DNA from: Gemmatimonadales bacterium
GTDB lineage: Bacteria > Gemmatimonadota > Gemmatimonadetes > Gemmatimonadales > GWC2-71-9
DNA length: 64,000 bases
Direction of reading: 5' to 3'
NCBI GenBank assembly: GCA_035251445.1
Contig: DATFEG010000040.1
Location: 15,261-79,260 of the forward strand
Each line of letters starts with the position of its first letter. The stretch's first letter is position 1. The notes under the pieces were generated by a model. The model was not told the origin of the DNA. It saw only the letters and a program-made list of their open reading frames with translations, and ran no database searches. The position numbers and the translations under genes are program-made. Below, in pieces: positions 3,852-62,106 of this stretch.

Positions 3852-4102
3852 CTGTCGACGGTGACTCGTGGGAGGTCTACCCCTCCGGGCGGGTGACCGT
3901 ATACGGCCGCGACCAGCTTGGCCTCATATTCGAGAGCGGCACCGGCACGCAACGGCGCCGCCGCGTGACGCATTTCTCGCCCGTCGGTGCGCGGATGCCC
4001 GAGCGCGCATTTCGAGAATTGTCCGATCGCGAGCTGCTCGAGCTCTTCCGCCAATCCCAGCCGGCCTGGACGGCCCCCGAGGTCTCGTACGCCCCACATT
4101 GA
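3833..4102 (+). CDS. Hypothetical small protein (89 aa)
   Basis: ATG 3833. Its frame has higher GC3 than the overlapping PHP frame over 4023-4100. No family recognised. Confidence 0.45.
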   Translation: MARRPLTVDGDSWEVYPSGRVTVYGRDQLGLIFESGTGTQRRRRVTHFSPVGARMPERAFRELSDRELLELFRQSQPAWTAPEVSYAPH

Positions 4103-4943
4103 TCTGCATTGCCATTCGACGGCATCGGATGGCGAGTGTACGCCAGCGGAGGTAGCGCGTCGCGCGCGGGCAGTCGGTTTGACGGCCGTCGCCCTGACTG
4201 ACCACGACACCACAGACGGCGTCGCGGACGCCACAAACGAGGCTGCCAAACACGGCATTCGCATCATCCCAGGATGCGAATTCAGCGTGCGCGCTCCCTG
4301 GGGCGAGCTGCATGTCCTGGCGCTGTTTCTGCCACCCGAGAGTGAGCGGCTACAGGACTTTCTGCACCAAACGCGAGCGGCCCGGCGCCGCCGGGGTGAG
4401 CAGATCGTCAACAAGCTCCAGGCCCTTGGCGTCGACATAGAGCTCGAAGACGTGCAGGCGCATCTTCTGGGAGGCGATGGTGGGGCCTTGGGCCGGCCGC
4501 ACGTGGCCCGCGCGCTCGTGGATTGCGGCGCCTGCGACGACATCCCGGACGCTTTCCGCCGCTACCTGGGGCGGGGGCGCGCGGCGTACGTCGAAAAACC
4601 GCTGCCCAAGCTCCTAGAGGTGACCGCTCTCGTCCACGAGGTGGGCGGGCTGACCTTCGCGGCGCATCTCGGCGATCACGGCACGGAGGCCCAACTCCGG
4701 ATCTTTCAGGACGAGGGTCTCGACGGCGTCGAGGTGCGGCATCCCAGCCACCCGCCCGCCGTCGAGCAGCGGCTCATCCGCATCGCGGAACGCCTGGGAC
4801 TGGGCATCAGCGGGGGATCGGACTGGCACGGCGAGAGCGAGTACGGTGAGTTGCATGCGCCACTCGGCGGCATGAAGGTTCCGGATACCTGGTTGCAGCC
4901 GCTCGAGCGCCGGCTCGAGCTCACCACGAGGAAACGAGCATGA
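3987..4943 (+). CDS. PHP-domain phosphoesterase (TrpH/YciV-like)
   Basis: IDLHCHSTASDG...ALTDHDT...GGSDWHG motifs. Homology begins at codon ATT 4098. The only canonical in-frame start is ATG 3987, so the start is uncertain. Confidence 0.8.
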   Translation: MRGCPSAHFENCPIASCSSSSANPSRPGRPPRSRTPHIDLHCHSTASDGECTPAEVARRARAVGLTAVALTDHDTTDGVADATNEAAKHGIRIIPGCEFSVRAPWGELHVLALFLPPESERLQDFLHQTRAARRRRGEQIVNKLQALGVDIELEDVQAHLLGGDGGALGRPHVARALVDCGACDDIPDAFRRYLGRGRAAYVEKPLPKLLEVTALVHEVGGLTFAAHLGDHGTEAQLRIFQDEGLDGVEVRHPSHPPAVEQRLIRIAERLGLGISGGSDWHGESEYGELHAPLGGMKVPDTWLQPLERRLELTTRKRA

Positions 4944-5386
4944 GTGAACTGTTACCGATTGGCAGTCCCGCGCCGTCGTTCTCGGCCGCTGCTTCCGACG
5001 GCCGCACCTACACACTCGCCGGTTTGCTCAAGGACGGACCAGTAGCGCTGGTCTTCTATCCCGGCAACAACACGCCCGGCTGAAACCGCCAGCTCTCCGC
5101 CGTGCGCGATGAGATCGACAAGTTCAGAGCCGCGAAGCTACAGCCGCTCGGCGTGAACCCGGCAGGCCCGGAGAGCCATCGGGGCTACGTCGAGAAATTC
5201 AAATTCAACTTTCCACTGCTCTCCGATCCCGACCGCGCGATCGCACGGGCCTACCACGCTCTCAAGGACGACGGGCCGGGCATTCAACGCACCGTCTACG
5301 CGATCGGCAAGGATGGAACCGTGTGCTTTGCGCAGCGCGGAGCTCCTCCTGTCGCCGCGATCGTCGCCGCCGTGAATGCCCGCTGA
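4940..5386 (+). CDS. Peroxiredoxin (AhpC/TSA, BCP/PrxQ-like) with in-frame TGA at codon 48 (candidate selenocysteine; alternatively a pseudogene)
   Basis: ATG 4940 overlaps the PHP stop (ATGA). The sequence ...VFYPGNNTPG-TGA(5081-5083)-NRQLS... places TGA at the conserved TPGC cysteine. The same frame continues open to 5386. Confidence 0.65.
5094..5114 (+). promoter_or_regulatory. Candidate SECIS-like bulged hairpin 10 nt downstream of TGA 5081
   Basis: UCUC-CGC / loop CGUGC / GCG-(AU bulge)-GAGA, paired by hand and not energy-evaluated. Confidence 0.3.
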
Positions 5387-6101
5387 TTTTCAGGGAAAAG
5401 TCGCACTCGTTACGGGAGTCGGCCGGGTCGGTCAGATCGGCCACGCGGTGGCGCGCGGGTTGGGGCGCGCAGGCGCAAAGCTGCTGCTCGCGGACGTCAA
5501 TGCGGTCGGTCTGGCTGACCGTGTCAAGGAGTTTGCATCGGAAGGCATTCCCGCCAAAGCGTCCGCTGGTGACCTCACGCAGCCCGAAGCGGCTCGCACC
5601 GCGACCGCCGTCGCGCGGTCCCAGTTCGGGGGCCTCGATGTCGTGGTTAATGTCGCCGGCGGATTTTTCAGCTACGGTCCGTTCACCGAGGTCAAGCCGG
5701 AAACGCTCGACCGCGAGCTCGCCATCAACTTCAAGACGGCGTTCTTCACGTGCCAGGCGGCCATTCCGGCGCTACTCGCACGCGGCGGTGGTGCGATCGT
5801 CAACTTTGCGTCCATCGCGGTTGTGCGTTCCCTGATGCACATGTCGGCTTACAGCGCGGCGAAGTCTGCGGTCGCGGGACTGACCCGCGAGCTGGCACGC
5901 GAGTATCGCGACGCGGGGATCCGGGTCAACGCCGTGGCACCAGCGACCGTTCGGACGGCTGATAACGTCGCGCAGATGAACGATCCGCAGGCGCCACTCG
6001 TCGAGCTCCAGGAAGTGGTCAATACTGTGCTCTTTCTCGCGAGCGAAGAATCGAGCGCGATCACCGGTCAGATCGTTCCCATTACCGGGAAAACGTACTA
6101 A
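5376..6101 (+). CDS. SDR family oxidoreductase
   Basis: GKVALVTGVGRVGQIG Rossmann motif and YSAAK catalytic motif. Confidence 0.85.
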   Translation: MPADFQGKVALVTGVGRVGQIGHAVARGLGRAGAKLLLADVNAVGLADRVKEFASEGIPAKASAGDLTQPEAARTATAVARSQFGGLDVVVNVAGGFFSYGPFTEVKPETLDRELAINFKTAFFTCQAAIPALLARGGGAIVNFASIAVVRSLMHMSAYSAAKSAVAGLTRELAREYRDAGIRVNAVAPATVRTADNVAQMNDPQAPLVELQEVVNTVLFLASEESSAITGQIVPITGKTY

Positions 6102-7604: not shown

Positions 7605-7951
7605 TGAGTCCCGAGGACCGCCGCCGCTACCTCGAGCACGCGCGGGAGTTGTTCAATTCCGGCGAGTTCTGGTTGGCGCACGAGGCGTTGGAAACAATCT
7701 GGCGTTCTATTATTAAGCAGGACGAGGCACGGGTCTGGCAGGGCTACATTCAGGCCGCTGCGGCCTTGCTCCATCGGGCCCGCGGGAACCGCCACGGGAC
7801 GGTGGTCGTTGGCGCGGCAGCGCTGGAGAAGCTGGCCGGTCCGCAGGATCCCGGGATCGAGTTCGAAACGGTGGAATTTCGCGCGCAGCTCGCGCGCGCC
7901 CTGGCGGGGGAGGGCGAGGCCCCGCGATTGGAATTCAGAGCCCATGACTAA
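7604..7951 (+). CDS. DUF309 domain protein
   Basis: ARELFNSGEFWLAHEALETIWR is the characteristic DUF309 signature. Confidence 0.7.
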   Translation: MSPEDRRRYLEHARELFNSGEFWLAHEALETIWRSIIKQDEARVWQGYIQAAAALLHRARGNRHGTVVVGAAALEKLAGPQDPGIEFETVEFRAQLARALAGEGEAPRLEFRAHD

Positions 7952-8915
7952 GCGTGTCGATCTCACTTACGACGTCATAATCGTGGGCGCGGGCCCGGCA
8001 GGCCTGTGCGCCGCGTTGTACGCCGGCCGTGGCATGCTCAAGACCGTGACGATTGAGCGCGGCGCGCCGGGCGGCGAACTGCTGAATACAGATCTGATCG
8101 AGGATTACATCGGCTTCGACACCATCAAGGGGTGGGACCTCGCGCAGAAGATGACCGAACACGCCAAGAAGTTCGGCGCGGAAATCGTCACCGACACGGT
8201 CGAGCGCATCCATAAAGGTTCCGATGGCTGGTTCGACGTCGAGACAGCGCGGGGGGAGACGTACCGGAGCCAGGCAGTCATTCTCACCGCAGGCGGGACG
8301 CCCGTGAAGCTGGGCGTCCCCGGGGAAAAGGAATACGCCGGTAGAGGTGTCTCGTACTGCGCGGTATGCGACGGTGCCTTTTTCAAAGGCGAGCGGCTCG
8401 CCGTCGTCGGGGGCGGCGATGCGGCCGTCGAAGAAGCGGATTACCTGACCCGCTATGCAAGCAAGGTCACGCTCGTGCACCGCCGCGCGGAGTTCCGCGC
8501 GTCGAGAATCCTGCAAGAACGGGCCTTTTCCAATCCCAAGATCGAAATCATCCGCAACACCGTCGTTCCCGAGATCGTCGGCAATGAGCGGGGCGTCACG
8601 CACGCCGTGTTGGAGAATAAGACGACTGGCGAGCGCTCCAATCTCGATGTCGGGGGCGTGTTCATTTTCGCGGGGTTCAAGCCCAACACGCAGCTCGTCG
8701 ATGGCCACGTCGACCATGACGCGGGCGGGTACCTGATCACGGACACCAAGATGATGACGTCCATGGCGGGCTTATTCGCGGCGGGTGACGTGCGCAGCCA
8801 GCTGACGCGCCAAATTACCACCGCCGTAGGGGACGCCACCACGGCGGCGATCGCCGTCGAGAAGTACCTCAAGGCTCTGCGCGAGAGCGAGGTCCCAGCA
8901 CCGGTCCGGGCATGA
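7944..8915 (+). CDS. trxB: Thioredoxin-disulfide reductase
   Basis: VIIVGAGPAGL, redox-active CAVCDG, and a second GGGDAAVEEA dinucleotide motif. Confidence 0.92.
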   Translation: MTKRVDLTYDVIIVGAGPAGLCAALYAGRGMLKTVTIERGAPGGELLNTDLIEDYIGFDTIKGWDLAQKMTEHAKKFGAEIVTDTVERIHKGSDGWFDVETARGETYRSQAVILTAGGTPVKLGVPGEKEYAGRGVSYCAVCDGAFFKGERLAVVGGGDAAVEEADYLTRYASKVTLVHRRAEFRASRILQERAFSNPKIEIIRNTVVPEIVGNERGVTHAVLENKTTGERSNLDVGGVFIFAGFKPNTQLVDGHVDHDAGGYLITDTKMMTSMAGLFAAGDVRSQLTRQITTAVGDATTAAIAVEKYLKALRESEVPAPVRA

Positions 8916-12417: not shown

Positions 12418-12870
12418 ATGCGCGTCACTACCTGGGCGGAGTACGGCTTAATCGTTTCGATTCATCTCGCCAGGCGCGCGGGGCAGGGGCCCGTCGCCGC
12501 CCGCGAGCTATCCGAGCAGGAACGGCTCCCTCACGACTACGTCGAGCAGATTCTGCTGCGCCTGCGGCGAGCCGGCCTAGTCGAGTCCGTACGCGGAGCC
12601 AGAGGTGGATACTTGCTCGCTCGACCTCCCCAGGCGGTCAGCGTGAAGGATGTCATCGAAGCATCGGAGCACGTGACGTTCGAGGTGAACTGCGATCGGC
12701 ACCGCGTCGACGAGGAGCGCTGCGACCCCGCTACTCCGTGCAGCATTCGACCGGTCTGGCGGCTGCTCGAACGCCGCATCAACGAGGTACTCGCCGGCAT
12801 CACGCTCGCCGATCTGCGGCACGCTGAGCCGGAAGTGTACCAGATCGCAGGGGTCGCTTCAGGGAATTGA
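12418..12870 (+). CDS. Rrf2 family transcriptional regulator
   Basis: MRVTTWAEYGL...LRRAGLVESVRGARGGYLLAR winged-helix pattern. Confidence 0.85.
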   Translation: MRVTTWAEYGLIVSIHLARRAGQGPVAARELSEQERLPHDYVEQILLRLRRAGLVESVRGARGGYLLARPPQAVSVKDVIEASEHVTFEVNCDRHRVDEERCDPATPCSIRPVWRLLERRINEVLAGITLADLRHAEPEVYQIAGVASGN

Positions 12871-14012
12871 CGATGCAGCTGTCCCACGAGGAGCTGCTGC
12901 GGTATTCGCGGCACCTCACCCTGCCCGATGTAGGTCTCGAAGGCCAAACCAAACTTCGCGCGGCGCGGGTGCTCCTCATCGGCGCCGGAGGGCTGGGCTC
13001 GCCCGCTGCATTCTACCTCGCTGCCGCCGGTGTGGGCACGCTCGGCATCGTTGATTTCGACGTCGTCGACCGGAGCAACCTCCAGCGTCAGATCCTGCAT
13101 GGCACCGCCAGCGTCGGAAGGGCCAAGACCGACTCTGCGCGCGAGCGGCTGCACGACATCAATCCACATGTCTCGGTCGAGATGTTCCCCGAGCGACTCA
13201 CGTCGGGTAACGGGCTCAAGGTCATGCGCGACTTCGATATCGTCGTCGACGGCTCAGACAACTTTCCGACGCGCTATCTCGTCAACGACGCATGTGTGCT
13301 GCTCGGCAAGCCGGATGTGTATGGATCGATCTTCCAGTTCGACGGGCAAGTTTCGGTTTTCGACGCCTCGCGCGGTCCCTGTTACCGGTGCCTGTTTGCC
13401 GAGCCCCCACCACCCGATCTCGTCCCGTCGTGCGCCGAGGGCGGGGTGCTCGGCGTCCTGCCGGGGATCATTGGATCACTCCAGGCGCTCGAAACGATCA
13501 AACTGATCGTGGGTGTGGGACATCCGTTGATCGGCCGGCTGTTGCTGTTCGACGGGAGGCGCGCGCAGTTTCGCGAGCTCGCACTCGAGAAGGATCGCGA
13601 CTGCCCTGTGTGCGGCCCGAATCCGACGGTGACTCGGCTGATCGACTACGAGGCCTTTTGTGGCGAACGGGAAACGGGAAACGGGAAACGGGAAACGGTC
13701 GAGATCAGTCCTCAAGAGTTGGCTCGGGAGCGTGGTCGGAATCCTAATCTCGTGCTCCTCGACGTTCGCGAACCACGTGAGGTCGAGATCGCACATATCG
13801 AGGGGGCGCGGCTGATCCCGCTGCGCGAGCTCCCCGGCCGATTGTCCGAGCTGCCGGGGCATGTCGAGATCGTCACGTTTTGCCATCACGGTCAGCGCTC
13901 GCTGCAGGCGCTGGCCATACTGAGGGGCGCAGGATTTGGGAATGTCAGAAGTCTTGCGGGCGGGATTGATGCGTGGTCACGCGAGATCGACCCTGGCGTC
14001 CCACGCTATTAG
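12867..14012 (+). CDS. MoeB/ThiF-family adenylyltransferase fused to rhodanese domain (MoeZ-like)
   Basis: RYSRHLTLPDVG...LIGAGGLGSP..., CYRC and CPVC pairs, and a C-terminal rhodanese domain with FCHHGQRS. Confidence 0.88.
   Translation: MTMQLSHEELLRYSRHLTLPDVGLEGQTKLRAARVLLIGAGGLGSPAAFYLAAAGVGTLGIVDFDVVDRSNLQRQILHGTASVGRAKTDSARERLHDINPHVSVEMFPERLTSGNGLKVMRDFDIVVDGSDNFPTRYLVNDACVLLGKPDVYGSIFQFDGQVSVFDASRGPCYRCLFAEPPPPDLVPSCAEGGVLGVLPGIIGSLQALETIKLIVGVGHPLIGRLLLFDGRRAQFRELALEKDRDCPVCGPNPTVTRLIDYEAFCGERETGNGKRETVEISPQELARERGRNPNLVLLDVREPREVEIAHIEGARLIPLRELPGRLSELPGHVEIVTFCHHGQRSLQALAILRGAGFGNVRSLAGGIDAWSREIDPGVPRY
13665..13698. repeat. Tandem heptanucleotide array (GAAACGG) x4.9 inside the moeZ-like linker
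   Basis: GAACGG GAAACGG x4, read directly. It is translated as ERETGNGKRET. Confidence 0.9.
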
Positions 14013-14135: not shown

Positions 14136-14220
<85 letters not shown>

Positions 14221-14744: not shown

Positions 14745-15949
14745 ACGCTTTCCTTCTTATAGCGGCCCTCCTGCCGCAGCACGTTCTGATCGCGACGCCG
14801 CGCGGTCAAGCGAGAATTCCCGTTACGGAGGAGCGACGAATCTCCGCGGTCGCGGCGATACTGCTGTCCCAACCACTCGGGCTTGCGACGTCGCTCGATG
14901 GCTCCACGATTCGGGCGACGTTGGCGGGAGTTGAATTCGAATTCGAGCTCGACTCACCATTCTTTCGCTACGCCGGTACAGCGTACGCGATGGTCGGCGC
15001 TCCGTACGTCGCGCGCGATACCGTATTCCTGCCGCTGCATTGGCTTTCCGACCATGTACCGCGCCTCCTCGCCGCACGCTACCGCTGGGATCCCGGGCTC
15101 GCACGTCTGGACGAGCGAGCTGTCTCGACTGCCGCGCCCGCGGTGACTGCCGCCGCGCCGTCCGCATCGGTTTCGGCGATCGCTTCGAGTGGTGCTCCAC
15201 ACCCCATCACGGGGCTGCGCCTGCCGCATACGATCGTCGTCGATCCAGGTCACGGCGGCGTCGATCCGGGCAATCCGGGGATGCATTTCCCGCGTGGCCT
15301 CGTTGAGAAAGACATCACGCTTGGCATCGGCCGGTTGCTGAGAGCCGAGCTGGTCCGGCGGGGTCTGACGGTGGTCCTGACGCGCTCGACCGATACGTTG
15401 ATCGATCTCGCCAACCGCCCGCTCTTCTGCCGGGCGGACTGCGACCTCTTCGTCAGCATCCACGTGAACGCAATGCCTCGGGGCAAGAAGCAGGGTACGG
15501 TCAATGGCGCGGAGACCTACTTCCTGTCTGACGCGAAGACCGAAGATCAGCAGCGCGTCGCGCAGATGGAAAACGATGCGCTTCGTTTCGAGACCGTCGC
15601 GACGGTCGAGGGGCCGCTCGCCTACATTCTCCGCGACCTCCAGCTCAATGAGTACTTGCGGGAATCGGCGCGACTCGCGGAGCTGGTCCAAGGGAAGGTG
15701 GCCGGCATTCATCCCGGCGAGGATCGCGGTGTACAGCAGGGTCCGTTCATGGTGCTGGCGGCCGCGCGCCGCCCGTCCATTCTCGTCGAGACCGGTTTCG
15801 CGACGAATCGTGACGACGGCGCGTTTCTCGCGTCGGCGACCGGCCAGCACAAGATCGCCTCAGCGATCGCGGATGGGATCGTGGCGTACCTCCTGGAATT
15901 CGAGCGGAAGCTGGCGGTAGGGAGCGGCGGGTCGGGGGACTCGCGGTGA
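14741..15949 (+). CDS. N-acetylmuramoyl-L-alanine amidase
   Basis: Amidase_3 pattern IVVDPGHGGVDPG...FVSIHVNA...ETYFLS. Confidence 0.85.
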   Translation: MNAFLLIAALLPQHVLIATPRGQARIPVTEERRISAVAAILLSQPLGLATSLDGSTIRATLAGVEFEFELDSPFFRYAGTAYAMVGAPYVARDTVFLPLHWLSDHVPRLLAARYRWDPGLARLDERAVSTAAPAVTAAAPSASVSAIASSGAPHPITGLRLPHTIVVDPGHGGVDPGNPGMHFPRGLVEKDITLGIGRLLRAELVRRGLTVVLTRSTDTLIDLANRPLFCRADCDLFVSIHVNAMPRGKKQGTVNGAETYFLSDAKTEDQQRVAQMENDALRFETVATVEGPLAYILRDLQLNEYLRESARLAELVQGKVAGIHPGEDRGVQQGPFMVLAAARRPSILVETGFATNRDDGAFLASATGQHKIASAIADGIVAYLLEFERKLAVGSGGSGDSR

Positions 15950-58596: not shown

Positions 58597-61500
58597 ATGA
58601 CTGCGCGCGGTGAGATGCCGTTTCTCGAACATCTCGAGGAGCTGCGTTGGCGCATCCTCTGGAGTCTTGGCGCCATCGTGGTGGGCACGATCATCGGATG
58701 GCTGGTGCTCGAGCGCGTGGACATCATCGAGCTGTTGAAGCGGCCCATCGCCCCCTATCTGCCGGGGGGGCGTCTCGTCTTTACGAGCCCCGCCGAGCCG
58801 TTCATGCTCTCGCTCAAGGTGGCGTTCGCGCTGGGGTGCCTGCTCGCGTCTCCCATCGTGATCTATCAGGTCTGGGCCTTTCTGGCGCCGGCTCTGTACC
58901 AACGAGAGAAGCGCTTGATCGTGCCCGCGCTGGCGGTTGGGGTGGTCCTGTTCCTGGCCGGGGCATACGCCTGCTACGAGTGGCTCCTGCCGGCGGCGCT
59001 CAGAGTGCTGCTGGGCTTTCAGGCCGCCGACCTGACGCCAATGATCACGATCGACCGCTACTTCGGGATGGCGGTGCCGTTCGTGATCGGCTGTGGCTTG
59101 ATTGCCGAGCTGCCCCTGGTCGTCACGATTCTGGCGTCGCTTGGTGTCGTCACGCCGCAGTTTCTCGCCCGCCAGCGTCGGTTTGCGGTCGTGATCGCCG
59201 CCTTCCTCGCCGCCATTCTCACGCCGCCCGACGCCGTCTCGATGCTGCTGATGCTCGGGCCGTTGGTATTGCTGTACGAGTTCAGTATCTGGTGCGCCTG
59301 GGTGGCGAGCCGGCGGCGCGCGCGACGGATGGCGGCCGCGATCGTCGTGCTGTTCCTGCTGATGGGAGGACCGCTTGCGGCGCAGAATCCTCCGCGGCCT
59401 CCGCCGCCTCCGCCACGACAGGGTACGCCGCAAGCGCGGCCACCTGCGCCCCAGGACACGGCGCGCCGCGGCAACATGGATACCGCTACGGCACGCCAGC
59501 TTGGACTGCCGACCGGGCCCACCCGCAGCTTTCCCGCTGCCGATCCCGTCATCGATTCATTGCTCAAGCTTCGGGGCTACAGCGTGACGCGGTACGTCGC
59601 CGACACGCTGATCGTTCAGGGGGACAGCCAAACCATTTTCCTGCGCAAAGAGGCGTACATCGATCGGGATGGCACACAGCTCGAAGCTGACACAGTGCGC
59701 TATCGAGAAGGCAGCTGCCAATTGAACGCCGGAGGTGACCCGCGACTGTTCGATCAAGGCACAGTCTTGGCCGGCGAAGGGATGCGCTACGATACGTGTT
59801 TACGCCGGGGCACGGTGCAAGACGCGCTCACCGAGTTCCAGCAGGGCGGCGCAAAGTGGCTCATGCGCGGCAATCTCGCGATAGACTCGGGAGCCTCTCG
59901 GGTGTACGCGGGACCAGCCAGGATCACCTCGGACCTCCAGCCGGTACCGGATTACCACTTTGCGGCGGGCGAAGCGAAGTGGATCAACAAGCGTACGATG
60001 GTCGCCCGGCCGGCGGTGCTCTACGTCCGTGACGTTCCCGTTATGTGGTTGCCGTTCATCTTCCAGGATATTCGAGGTGGGCGGCGAAGCGGTATCCTGT
60101 TCCCGCGCTTTGGCCTCAACGATCTGGTTCGTCCCACACGCTCGTACTCGCGGCACATCACAGACCTGGGCTACTACTTCGCGATCAACGACTATATGGA
60201 CCTGCTCGTCTCGGGCGACTGGTACGACGATCGCAACGTGTCATTTCACGCGCAGGCAGGCTATCGCTGGATCGATCGGTTCATGCAGGGGAGTCTGACG
60301 TATACGCGCACCACTGAGATCGGGGAGGGAGGCGGGTCGCGGAATACGCGCATTGGCTGGCATCACTCGCAGAGCTTCGATGCACGCACGAATCTCAACG
60401 CGAACATCGACTACTCGAGCAACGGGAGGGTGATTCAGCGCAATTCGCTGAATCCGTTTGAGGTGACCTCCAGCGTTACGTCGGGCGCGAGTTTCAACAA
60501 GCGCTTTTCGTGGGCGACCCTGACCATCGGTGGCACCAGAAGTCAGGAACTGTCAGAAAATTCCACGAGACAGCAATTCCCAACGATCACCCTGACGCCG
60601 AGCGCGATCGCGATTACGCCGGCCATCAACTGGGCTCCGTCGTTTACCTACGCGAACGCACAGACGTTTCATACGACGGCTGGATTTTTGCCGATTCCTT
60701 CACAGCCGGGAGACTCCCTTCCCCTCACGAACGTACCGCTGTTTGCCAGCACGCGGACGACCACGATGAGTTTCGCTACTCCGATTCGAATCGGTCGATG
60801 GAATTGGACGAACAGCATCAACTACAGCGACGATGTGAGGCATGGCCGCACGGAGGTGAGGTTTACCGACTCCGCGGGGACCGTTCACCACCTCTTGTTC
60901 GCTGAAACGTTCACGACGAGTATCGAGTGGCAGACCGGCATTGGTTTGCCGACGCTGTTTACCGGCACATGGAAGCTTCAGCCGGGTGTGTCGATCGTGA
61001 ACACGACGAGTCAGGGCCCGTTCATGATCCGCAATCAGTTTACCGGCGGCGACTGGGTGCAGCAGGGAAAGCGGCTGCAGTTCTCGGCCAGCTCGTCCCC
61101 CACGTTCTTTGGATTCTTTCCGGGGTTCGGACCGTTTTCCCGAATCCGTCACTCCATTTCACCGCTCCTAAGTTGGCAGTATGCCCCAGGGGTCACCGTA
61201 GATCCAGCTTATGCGCGGGCGATTGATCCGACCGGCTTGCGTCTGGACACGCGCAGCGATCCGCAGCAGACCATCAACCTGGGACTGTCGCAAAACTTCG
61301 AAGCGAAATTAAAGCCGCCACCGGGGGACACATCGTCCTCTGCACCGCCGCGCAAGATCCGCCTGCTCAGCATCAATACAAGCGCGATCAGCTACAACAT
61401 TGAACAGGCCAAGCAGCCTCACCGCACGGGTTGGCAGACTTCTTCGCTGTCCAACACGTTCCTATCCGATCTCCTTCCCGGCTTTCAATTGGGAATCACT

Positions 61501-62106
61501 CACGATCTGTTCAAAGGCCAGGTAGGGACCGATTCGGCCGAGTTTGATCCATTCCTCTCGAGTCTCACGGCATCGTTCCAAGTCACGCCCGCGACACTAC
61601 ACGGTATAGCGCGACTGTTCGGTCTTCGTCGTGGCGAGCCGCCCCCCACCCCGACCGCGGATACGACCGGACAGCAAGACCTTCCAGGTTCGCAGTCGCC
61701 GCAGTTTCGCCAGTTTCAGGGGGCTACGCACACTGAAGTACTGCCCGGGTCCCCTATGGGCGGTGTGGGTCGCGGGTTCTCGCTTGGGGTCAGTTTCTCG
61801 AGCACTCGGAGCCGCTTGGACACGCTTCCCGCGTTGCGGAACGCGCCCGGACGTCAGGTGACAAACCTGACGCTGTCCTTCACGCCGACGCGCAACTGGA
61901 CGGTGAACTGGGGCACGTCATTCGATTTTGGCACGCGTCAATTCGCCCAGCATATGGTCCAGCTGAACCGTGACCTGCGGCGGTGGCGCGCGAGTTTTTC
62001 GTTCAACAAGACCGGATCGGGAAGCTTCGCGTTCACCTTCAACATCGCGCTCAACGACCAGCCGGACATCCGCTTCGACTACGACCAAACCACGTTCGTG
62101 CGCTAG
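58597..62106 (+). CDS. tatC: Twin-arginine translocase subunit TatC (aa 1-243) continuing without a stop into an LptD/OstA-like outer-membrane protein (aa 245-1169)
   Basis: TatC: MPFLEHLEELRWRI...LTPPDAVSM. This is followed by RRRARR-MAAAIVVLFLLMGGPLAAQ-NPPRPPPPPP and LptD-like VMWLPFIFQDIRGGRRSGILFPRFG. The internal ATG is at 59329. Confidence 0.7.
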   Translation: MTARGEMPFLEHLEELRWRILWSLGAIVVGTIIGWLVLERVDIIELLKRPIAPYLPGGRLVFTSPAEPFMLSLKVAFALGCLLASPIVIYQVWAFLAPALYQREKRLIVPALAVGVVLFLAGAYACYEWLLPAALRVLLGFQAADLTPMITIDRYFGMAVPFVIGCGLIAELPLVVTILASLGVVTPQFLARQRRFAVVIAAFLAAILTPPDAVSMLLMLGPLVLLYEFSIWCAWVASRRRARRMAAAIVVLFLLMGGPLAAQNPPRPPPPPPRQGTPQARPPAPQDTARRGNMDTATARQLGLPTGPTRSFPAADPVIDSLLKLRGYSVTRYVADTLIVQGDSQTIFLRKEAYIDRDGTQLEADTVRYREGSCQLNAGGDPRLFDQGTVLAGEGMRYDTCLRRGTVQDALTEFQQGGAKWLMRGNLAIDSGASRVYAGPARITSDLQPVPDYHFAAGEAKWINKRTMVARPAVLYVRDVPVMWLPFIFQDIRGGRRSGILFPRFGLNDLVRPTRSYSRHITDLGYYFAINDYMDLLVSGDWYDDRNVSFHAQAGYRWIDRFMQGSLTYTRTTEIGEGGGSRNTRIGWHHSQSFDARTNLNANIDYSSNGRVIQRNSLNPFEVTSSVTSGASFNKRFSWATLTIGGTRSQELSENSTRQQFPTITLTPSAIAITPAINWAPSFTYANAQTFHTTAGFLPIPSQPGDSLPLTNVPLFASTRTTTMSFATPIRIGRWNWTNSINYSDDVRHGRTEVRFTDSAGTVHHLLFAETFTTSIEWQTGIGLPTLFTGTWKLQPGVSIVNTTSQGPFMIRNQFTGGDWVQQGKRLQFSASSSPTFFGFFPGFGPFSRIRHSISPLLSWQYAPGVTVDPAYARAIDPTGLRLDTRSDPQQTINLGLSQNFEAKLKPPPGDTSSSAPPRKIRLLSINTSAISYNIEQAKQPHRTGWQTSSLSNTFLSDLLPGFQLGITHDLFKGQVGTDSAEFDPFLSSLTASFQVTPATLHGIARLFGLRRGEPPPTPTADTTGQQDLPGSQSPQFRQFQGATHTEVLPGSPMGGVGRGFSLGVSFSSTRSRLDTLPALRNAPGRQVTNLTLSFTPTRNWTVNWGTSFDFGTRQFAQHMVQLNRDLRRWRASFSFNKTGSGSFAFTFNIALNDQPDIRFDYDQTTFVR

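Follow-up and report, generated by a model that had tools for sequence, protein, structure and literature searches.

Does an in-frame TGA within a peroxidase gene terminate that gene, or is it decoded as an amino acid? The question is raised by a 64,000-nt stretch of Gemmatimonadales DNA (GenBank assembly GCA_035251445.1, contig DATFEG010000040.1, positions 15,261 to 79,260 of the forward strand; hereafter the window), in which positions 4940-5386 read as an AhpC/TSA-type peroxiredoxin interrupted by one TGA. A previous sequence-only reading had proposed that this TGA replaces the peroxidatic cysteine and encodes selenocysteine (Sec). Our comparative analysis supports the proposal: TGA recurs in 154 of 163 orthologues, the two halves of the gene are equally selected, a nucleotide block following the codon is frozen specifically in the TGA forms, and orthologues with cysteine exist at the same locus. 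Since a TGA at the catalytic-cysteine position and the hairpin that follows it are kept in more than 150 relatives, the codon is almost certainly one for Sec. On these comparative grounds we conclude that 4940-5386 very probably encodes a selenocysteine-containing peroxiredoxin. The argument turns on the following features.

4940..5386, plus strand: peroxiredoxin coding sequence, BCP/AhpE-like, predicted 1-Sec type, 148 residues (translation, PF00578 and 163 colinear orthologues)
5081..5083, plus strand: predicted Sec codon TGA, codon 48, motif P41-x3-T45-x2-U48 (TGA in 154/163 orthologues; column of the peroxidatic cysteine of solved BCPs)
4928..4943, plus strand: translation start region (GAGGAA Shine-Dalgarno-like hexamer at 4928-4933; ATGA overlap)
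5084..5113, plus strand: putative selenocysteine insertion sequence (SECIS) block, codons 49-58, AAC CGC CAG CUC UCC GCC GUG CGC GAU GAG (synonymous freeze in TGA forms)
5093-5113, plus strand: hairpin with stem CUC/GAG, 2x2 internal loop UC/AU, stem CGC/GCG and apical loop CGUGC (minimum free energy -6.5 kcal/mol)

Translation of 4940-5400 gave MSELLPIGSP...FYPGNNTPG*NRQLSAVRDE...VNAR*, that is, MSELLPIGSPAPSFSAAASDGRTYTLAGLLKDGPVALVFYPGNNTPG-TGA-NRQLSAVRDEIDKF...AAVNAR-TGA. This is a single 148-codon AhpC/TSA peroxiredoxin gene on the plus strand, with the internal TGA as codon 48 (5081-5083) and a terminal TGA at 5384-5386. The start proposed earlier holds: ATG 4940 overlaps the stop (4941-4943) of the upstream open reading frame (ORF) 3987-4943 in an ATGA arrangement, and the Shine-Dalgarno-like GAGGAA lies 6 nt 5’ of it. 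Across 81 genome loci the start codon was ATG in 79 and GTG in 2. Translation of the peroxiredoxin is probably coupled to that of the upstream PHP gene via the overlap. The sequence-only reading had also described third-position G+C as alike on both sides of the TGA, which agrees with values of 0.72 on the 5’ side and 0.77 on the 3’ side, and had observed correctly that the mechanical ORF list gives only 5102-5386 for this gene.

When cysteine was put at codon 48, the read-through protein matched PF00578 (Pfam AhpC-TSA) with an E value of 5.8e-30 and 104 bits against a cutoff of 26, over residues 7-128 of 148 and profile positions 1-121 of 124. The frame is therefore open through the AhpC/TSA domain as far as the stop at 5384-5386, as had been claimed. 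Codon 48 aligned with the TPG-C peroxidatic cysteine of solved BCP structures (e.g., 5enu, ‘YPKDNTPGCTTE’), and the same column is cysteine in about 72-78 database Cys homologues; R117 aligned with the catalytic arginine in ‘GIERS’ of 5enu. Translation and alignment together thus place the TGA exactly at the peroxidatic-cysteine codon. In that column the nearest relatives have TGA and the remoter orthologues TGC or TGT. P41, T45, codon 48 and R117 are invariant in all 154 predicted Sec forms. Cysteine is altogether absent from 148 of these, and position 53, the resolving-cysteine site of a CxxxxC arrangement, is serine in 154/154, which does not match an atypical 2-Cys enzyme. Lacking a resolving cysteine, a 1-Sec enzyme of this kind would have to be recycled by an external thiol reductant.

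Cys53 is present in two of the Cys forms. A second cysteine stands five or six residues past the peroxidatic one in L086 and L088 (Cys53) and in L096 (Cys54), a PrxQ-like CxxxxC arrangement. In the Sec forms the Ser53 codon, UCC, is locked within the putative SECIS stem. The narrower NCBIfam equivalog models scored below their cutoffs, with 62 versus 140 bits for BCP (NF006960) and 52 versus 260 for PrxQ (NF053650). An AlphaFold model of the Cys orthologue P0001, which is 75% identical to the window protein, had a mean predicted local distance difference test score (pLDDT) of 93.7 and placed residue 48 near the start of helix 46-57, as in a thioredoxin fold. Its fold matched Bcp1 (3drn) with a template modelling (TM) score of 0.86 and AhpE with a TM score of 0.87.

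We then compared orthologous genes to assess how widely the TGA is kept. The set of 163 comprised 81 genome loci (the window and 80 species-representative genomes) and 82 metagenome loci. Although the metagenome scan was seeded with Cys forms, it still returned 73 TGA forms, together with seven TGC; two TGT forms (L083, L084) had been fetched earlier. TGA occupied codon 48 in 154/163 orthologues from Gemmatimonadales genomes and soil metagenomes, namely in 81/81 genome loci and 73/82 metagenome loci; the other nine had TGC or TGT, and TAA or TAG never occurred. The 154 TGA genes correspond to 143 distinct proteins with identities down to 56%. In protein searches, the closest relatives (77-95% identical) were all 91-94-residue fragments that start past the TGA, full-length Cys proteins appeared at 75% identity or less, and the Cys orthologues were called at their full length of 148-152 residues.

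Both halves of the gene have experienced similar selective pressures. Nei-Gojobori estimates over 1,500 random pairs gave a synonymous difference proportion (pS) of 0.555, a nonsynonymous proportion (pN) of 0.165 and a pN/pS of 0.30 for codons 2-47, and 0.549, 0.157 and 0.29, respectively, for codons 59-140. No second stop was found in the fixed frame in codons 1-140 of the 163 genes. Because the upstream part is under the same purifying selection as the downstream part, a pseudogene and a gene starting at 5102 are excluded. Decay 3’ of the TGA, which the earlier reading had named as the sign of a pseudogene, was looked for and not seen. That reading had also suggested inspecting read pile-ups at the TGA. 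In the contigs of four public runs, independent of one another and taken from soil and rhizosphere, we found no variant at 5081-5083; these were assembler contigs and not raw reads, so that rare variants are invisible and the test is weaker than a pile-up. One contig from a 2018 rhizosphere run was 100% identical to the window over 4900-5419.

Some individual loci and assemblies are irregular in this gene. The peroxiredoxin genes of L057 (DATIXG010000006.1) and L006 are 67% identical 5’ of the TGA and 100% identical past the SECIS block; the L057 gene was probably pieced together at the invariant block, either by the assembler as a chimera or by recombination. The translation of L049 (QHUE01000080.1) leaves the family after about residue 127 (…GRDGTGCCSPTSTRSG…), which suggests a frameshift or assembly error near the 3’ end of the gene. 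In the four soil and rhizosphere runs, contig depth over the frozen block (window 5045-5115) leaps from ~10x to values of up to 191x, and numerous short contigs stop at 5045 or 5115 with unrelated flanks. This 50-70-nt stretch is common to many co-occurring populations, and metagenome assemblies break or mis-join there.

The block directly following the TGA is constrained at the nucleotide level. Codon entropy was determined for the 40 columns that encode an invariant amino acid with four- or six-fold degeneracy. Codons 52-56 (CUC UCC GCC GUG CGC) had zero entropy in the 154 TGA forms; the other 35 comparable columns ranged from 0.42 to 2.44 bits. Across codons 49-58, pS was 0.084 versus 0.55 elsewhere. 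Gln51 is CAA in 77/81 genome loci, though CAG is the preferred glutamine codon elsewhere in the gene; CAA is also the consensus of the TGA-form block, and the window has CAG. The nine Cys forms vary in the block (AAT, AGG/CGA/CGG, CTG, AGT/TCG, CGG), with CAG in 9/9. Since the Cys forms encode nearly the same peptide yet vary there, it is the TGA, and not the protein, that the constraint follows.

Within this block lies a hairpin, beginning 9-10 nt past the UGA, whose small apical loop includes G and U. A hairpin close past the UGA and a small loop with a G are features that bacterial SECIS elements commonly share (Zhang et al., PMC1088965). The sequence-only reading had placed the hairpin at 5094-5114, about 10 nt after the TGA; its existence and spacing stand, but the minimum-energy register is 5093-5113 (-6.5 versus -5.6 kcal/mol). 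The variable positions of the block (+6, +9 and +27) are all unpaired in the hairpin model. A natural variant, L150, is missing the U at +27, which is unpaired, and still folds into a helix, a tighter one (-10 kcal/mol). Taken with the preceding results, the locus displays the features by which selenoproteins are recognised comparatively: UGA/Cys pairing, conservation on both sides of the UGA and a SECIS-like stem-loop.

The Cys forms allow the direction of change to be considered. P0007, P0037, P0077 and P0028 share the neighbourhood of dehydrogenase subunits E1a, E1b and E2, (PHP), peroxiredoxin, short-chain dehydrogenase, TrxB and MBL-fold gene, and because of this shared neighbourhood they are orthologues, not paralogues, of the window gene. 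The PHP gene lies directly upstream in most relatives examined, Sec or Cys, including L083, L084 and L165-L167; none was called in the Cys locus L168/L169. In L083 (Cys form P0007; ~8140-8175), TGT is followed by AACCGCCAGCUCUCCGCCGUGCGCGAUGAA, a block that differs from that of the window at one base (GAG to GAA). The near-intact block of L083 and L084 points to a fossil SECIS and a recent Sec-to-Cys change. In a neighbour-joining tree of the 140-residue protein, Sec and Cys forms were interleaved on short, unsupported branches, a hint of repeated Sec/Cys switching. All Sec forms share the identical 30-nt element, which is more simply explained by a single origin and repeated reversion from Sec to Cys. 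Both the tree and the fossil SECIS suggest Sec-to-Cys conversions; a 2006 survey reported only Cys-to-Sec events for peroxiredoxins (PMC1794560).

A scan of all loci for TGAs that lie in frame and have coding signal both before and after them revealed a second TGA family. It is an AhpD-like CMD-domain gene (PF02627 on its Cys versions) ~5 kb 3’ of the peroxiredoxin, in which the TGA lies within ...N-R-C-R-Y-[TGA]-L-N-S-H, a CxxU motif, at 17 loci. AhpD-like CxxU proteins are a known selenoprotein family (PMC1088965). The gene is not in the window, where it is lacking between 10569 and 10890. Its loci, and their states relative to the peroxiredoxin, are as follows.

AhpD-like gene with TGA: L036, L037, L045, L052, L056, L058, L059 (TGA at 15072), L061, L062, L064, L067, L069, L071, L072, L078, L079, L080
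AhpD-like gene, Cys versions: L083 13790-14257; L165 14127-14663
Peroxiredoxin TGA with AhpD-like TGA: 17 loci
Peroxiredoxin TGC or TGT with AhpD-like TGC: 4 loci (two lineages)
Mixed peroxiredoxin and AhpD-like states: 0 loci

The Sec/Cys states of the two genes thus agree on every contig that has both (17/17 TGA, 4/4 Cys), as predicted by a genome-level Sec-decoding trait. A 7-bp hairpin, CUGUCUU-GGC-AAGACAG, lies 13 nt past the AhpD-like TGA. All of its alignment cells (100%) are paired, three pairs show compensatory double changes, and some of these changes cost an Arg-to-Gly substitution; its covariation was equalled by none of 500 shuffles. The extended fold reached -20.2 kcal/mol (z = -3.7).

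Several observations weigh against the Sec interpretation of the peroxiredoxin gene. The search for selA, selB, selD and tRNA-Sec was confined to the 64-kb window and 80 loci of related genomes (1.27 Mb together) and found none of them: tblastn with E. coli SelA, SelB and SelD (from NC_000913.3) gave no match in that sequence, and ARAGORN called no tRNA-Sec in the window. With 3 + 3 bp and -6.5 kcal/mol, the peroxiredoxin hairpin is a short one, and folding of 5075-5160 and of shorter pieces gave z scores of +0.3 to -1.5 relative to shuffled sequence. Because its stem never varies, it comes without proof by covariation. Rfam gave no match at E <= 10 in 5040-5180, which means only that no family reached the threshold. 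Finally, the amino-acid motif NRQLSAVRD is largely retained in the Cys forms too, and since these residues form helix alpha2, part of the block’s conservation is at the protein level. As the hairpin is no more stable than the shuffles, its significance rests on conservation and not on energy: the folding check proposed earlier returned an unremarkable energy, yet the hairpin sits in a 30-nt block that is nearly free of synonymous change in 154 TGA forms and varies in nine Cys forms.

The machinery search also produced candidates that we rejected. ARAGORN made a single ‘tRNA-SeC(tca)’ call in the window and L001-L080, at L077 13192-13268. This 77-nt sequence is a false positive, as its stems are mismatched, it has neither a long variable arm nor Rfam support, and it lies in a region with long ORFs. 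Such a call could mislead automated assignments of the Sec trait. The window ORFs whose length would suit SelA, SelB or SelD were housekeeping genes by Pfam, among them UDP-glucose dehydrogenases, RelA/SpoT, UvrB, RpoA, CarB, SecA and HemA.

We considered what else an in-frame TGA of this kind could mean. The UGA could be recoded through the SECIS to cysteine by a selC*-type tRNA (tRNA-ReC, with U73 and charged by CysRS) and a SelB-like factor, giving a 1-Cys peroxiredoxin. SECIS-dependent decoding of UGA as cysteine by selC*/tRNA-ReC has been described (PMC5389517), and a study of [NiFeSe] hydrogenase points to it as a limit inherent in calling selenoproteins from sequence alone (PMC13582414). 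From sequence, Sec and Cys are indistinguishable at the protein level, a further point against our preferred interpretation. However, tRNA-ReC is rare and was found beside canonical selC in the survey cited there (PMC13582414). There is also no obvious gain in keeping a UGA and a SECIS over more than 150 lineages when one TGA-to-TGY change would suffice, and decay of the SECIS in lineages that switched to TGC or TGT fits a real chemical difference between the forms. We therefore consider recoding to cysteine highly unlikely.

Alternatively, the TGA might be a true stop, leaving either a pseudogene or two separate products, an N-terminal peptide of 47 residues and, from GTG 5102, a C-terminal fragment of 94. 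Public gene calls of 91-94 amino acids (e.g., P0044, P0054), the invariance of GTG 5102 and the status of TGA as the commonest stop codon in the window would be compatible with this. Yet both halves are equally selected, and the 154 genes, whose identity falls as low as 56%, contain neither a second stop nor a frame break, which is not what termination predicts. A 94-residue fragment would be without the strands of the thioredoxin fold and without its active-site loop. The invariance of the GTG belongs to the 30-nt frozen block, no ribosome-binding motif precedes it, and the Cys orthologues at the same locus are single proteins of 148-152 amino acids; the chance that translation ends here appears very remote. 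An assembly or sequencing error for TGC or TGT, or genome-wide reassignment of UGA to Trp or Gly, was the last explanation weighed, as the window is probably metagenome-assembled and both single-base errors and alternative codes occur in uncultured bacteria. The same TGA appears in 154 independent assemblies from many projects, and the contigs of the four runs carry no variant at 5081-5083. UGA is not reassigned, because it terminates 39 of the 65 predicted window genes (64 with a stop codon), including the peroxiredoxin gene itself; moreover, a catalytic Trp or Gly would mean a dead enzyme, and yet the gene is under purifying selection. The probability of error or reassignment is practically negligible.

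If the codon is indeed decoded as selenocysteine, translation would start at ATG 4940 and run through the UGA to the true stop at 5384-5386. With UGA 5081-5083 in the ribosomal A site, the hairpin at 5093-5113 would lie 9-10 nt downstream and would serve as the SECIS, recruiting SelB with Sec-tRNA(Sec); selenocysteine would be inserted and no termination would occur. The predicted product is a 148-residue thioredoxin-fold peroxidase whose active site comprises P41, T45, U48 and R117, with U48 placed at the N terminus of helix alpha2. The U48 selenolate would reduce H2O2 or organic hydroperoxides and become a selenenic acid, which would be recycled directly by an external thiol, probably thioredoxin held reduced by the nearby TrxB. 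We infer Sec insertion, SelB binding to the hairpin, the substrate and the reductant from the features described above.

The window has 65% G+C, and all 65 of its predicted genes lie on the plus strand. Its nearest public DNA is from Gemmatimonadales metagenome-assembled genomes, with L001 (JBIOXD010000006.1) at 91-93% nucleotide identity, and the public runs that contain the sequence are soil and rhizosphere metagenomes. Two neighbours bear on the peroxiredoxin.

3987..4943, plus strand: upstream neighbour, PHP-domain phosphoesterase (PF02811 and NCBIfam partial matches)
7944..8915, plus strand: thioredoxin-disulfide reductase TrxB (TIGR01292, 362.8 bits against a cutoff of 343.45)

On the 5’ side, the gene order is 2-oxoacid dehydrogenase E1-alpha, E1-beta and E2, short ORFs without a family match, the PHP phosphoesterase and the peroxiredoxin. 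Two short-chain dehydrogenases, an unknown gene, a DUF309 gene and the thioredoxin reductase follow, and further 3’ lie an MBL-fold hydrolase, a lysyl-phosphatidylglycerol-synthase-like membrane protein, a fumarase-family lyase (Lyase_1, FumaraseC_C), a MoeB-rhodanese gene, a tRNA-Leu gene and SmpB. The tRNA-Leu (14137-14220) was the only Rfam match in the window at the gathering threshold. The TIGR01292 match bears out the earlier statement that a co-oriented thioredoxin reductase lies 2.6 kb downstream; its position is kept in both Sec and Cys loci, and TrxB is plausibly part of the reductant chain of the peroxiredoxin.

The MoeB/ThiF-rhodanese gene of the window (12867-14012, plus strand) is a fusion; MoeB and rhodanese-related proteins are among the selenoprotein families reported from the Sargasso Sea (PMC1088965), and the window scan for in-frame TGAs flagged nothing in this gene. 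At 58615-62106 (plus strand), one 1163-codon ORF matches TatC over residues 5-216 and LptD_2 over residues 463-665; unless a crude choice of start has joined two genes, this is an unusual fusion.

The Sec interpretation has consequences for annotation and for soil biology. For this clade, the gene calls of JGI, ENA and NCBI cover just the C-terminal 91-94 residues; a widespread antioxidant enzyme from a phylum that is abundant in soil would thus be systematically mis-annotated and would look catalytically dead. If the interpretation is true, many soil Gemmatimonadales need selenium and Sec machinery for at least one or two thiol peroxidases, and soil selenium availability would be tied to their oxidative-stress tolerance. 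At one orthologous locus, the family also sets more than 150 predicted Sec forms beside several Cys forms of independent origin and a fossil SECIS, a clean natural Sec/Cys comparison with which to ask what advantage Sec gives a peroxiredoxin and how a SECIS element degenerates. More speculatively, soil Gemmatimonadales may harbor an undescribed selenium-dependent peroxide-defence module made up of a Cys-free 1-Sec peroxiredoxin, joined in many species by an AhpD-like CxxU selenoprotein, the two lying in a conserved block next to TrxB. The unusually small, frozen SECIS would then reflect a lineage-specific rule for SelB, and several reversions to Cys would have accompanied loss of the Sec trait, the reverse of the reported Cys-to-Sec-only trend. 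We offer this broader proposal tentatively and think it possible but rather doubtful.

How does the window gene compare with known systems? Peroxiredoxins with a TxxU (PxxxTxxU) motif, of COG1225/PF00578, are an established bacterial selenoprotein family (PMC1088965, PMC1794560, PMC5029168, PMC13188914), so that the selenoproteome literature bears out the class to which the sequence-only reading had appealed. The window gene resembles this family in its PF00578 domain, its PxxxTxxU motif and a putative SECIS within the coding sequence, right past the UGA, with a G in its small loop; Cys homologues are widespread in both cases. The Sargasso Sea paper places Sec peroxiredoxins under COG1225 (Bcp) (PMC1088965), in agreement with the BCP-like fold of the window protein. 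The published selenoprotein-rich organisms with Sec peroxiredoxins are mostly anaerobes (PMC1794560), whereas the window’s clade comes from soil and rhizosphere metagenomes. Gemmatimonadetes or Gemmatimonadota are unmentioned in the searchable selenoproteome papers and supplements; BSepDB (64,000 genomes, 88 lineages) may already list these genes.

Among characterised enzymes, PrxU of Eubacterium acidaminophilum has Sec at the peroxidatic position and was shown to be made and active, according to the account of Sohling et al. 2001 given in PMC13188914. It belongs to another subfamily and is not an orthologue: the PrxU equivalog model NF040737 has 233 positions, compared with 148 residues in the window protein, which scored 30 bits against its cutoff of 270. 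The Cys enzymes of the BCP/PrxQ/AhpE group (3drn, S. solfataricus Bcp1; 5enu, Burkholderia; 5iiz, X. campestris PrxQ; 1xxu, M. tuberculosis AhpE) were the solved structures closest in sequence to the window protein (E 3e-15 to 1e-9) and the best fold matches of the Cys-orthologue model (TM 0.78-0.87). Like the window protein, they have ~150 amino acids and the active-site loop at the same position; in the window protein, Sec would replace Cys. AhpE shares with it the absence of a resolving cysteine, whereas many PrxQ/BCP enzymes have the resolving cysteine of a CxxxxC motif where the window family has Ser53.

The SECIS of E. coli fdhF type is a SelB-binding hairpin in the coding sequence ~10 nt past the UGA, with a G/U loop and unpaired nucleotides by the upper stem. 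The window hairpin is similar in its placement, its G/U loop and the unpaired nucleotides that flank its upper stem. It is shorter and weaker (3 + 3 bp, -6.5 kcal/mol), has no detectable sequence similarity to the fdhF element, and its binding by SelB is a prediction. At the level of sequence, then, the window gene displays every feature expected of the TxxU Sec-peroxiredoxin family, and is an unannotated addition to that family rather than a new mechanism.

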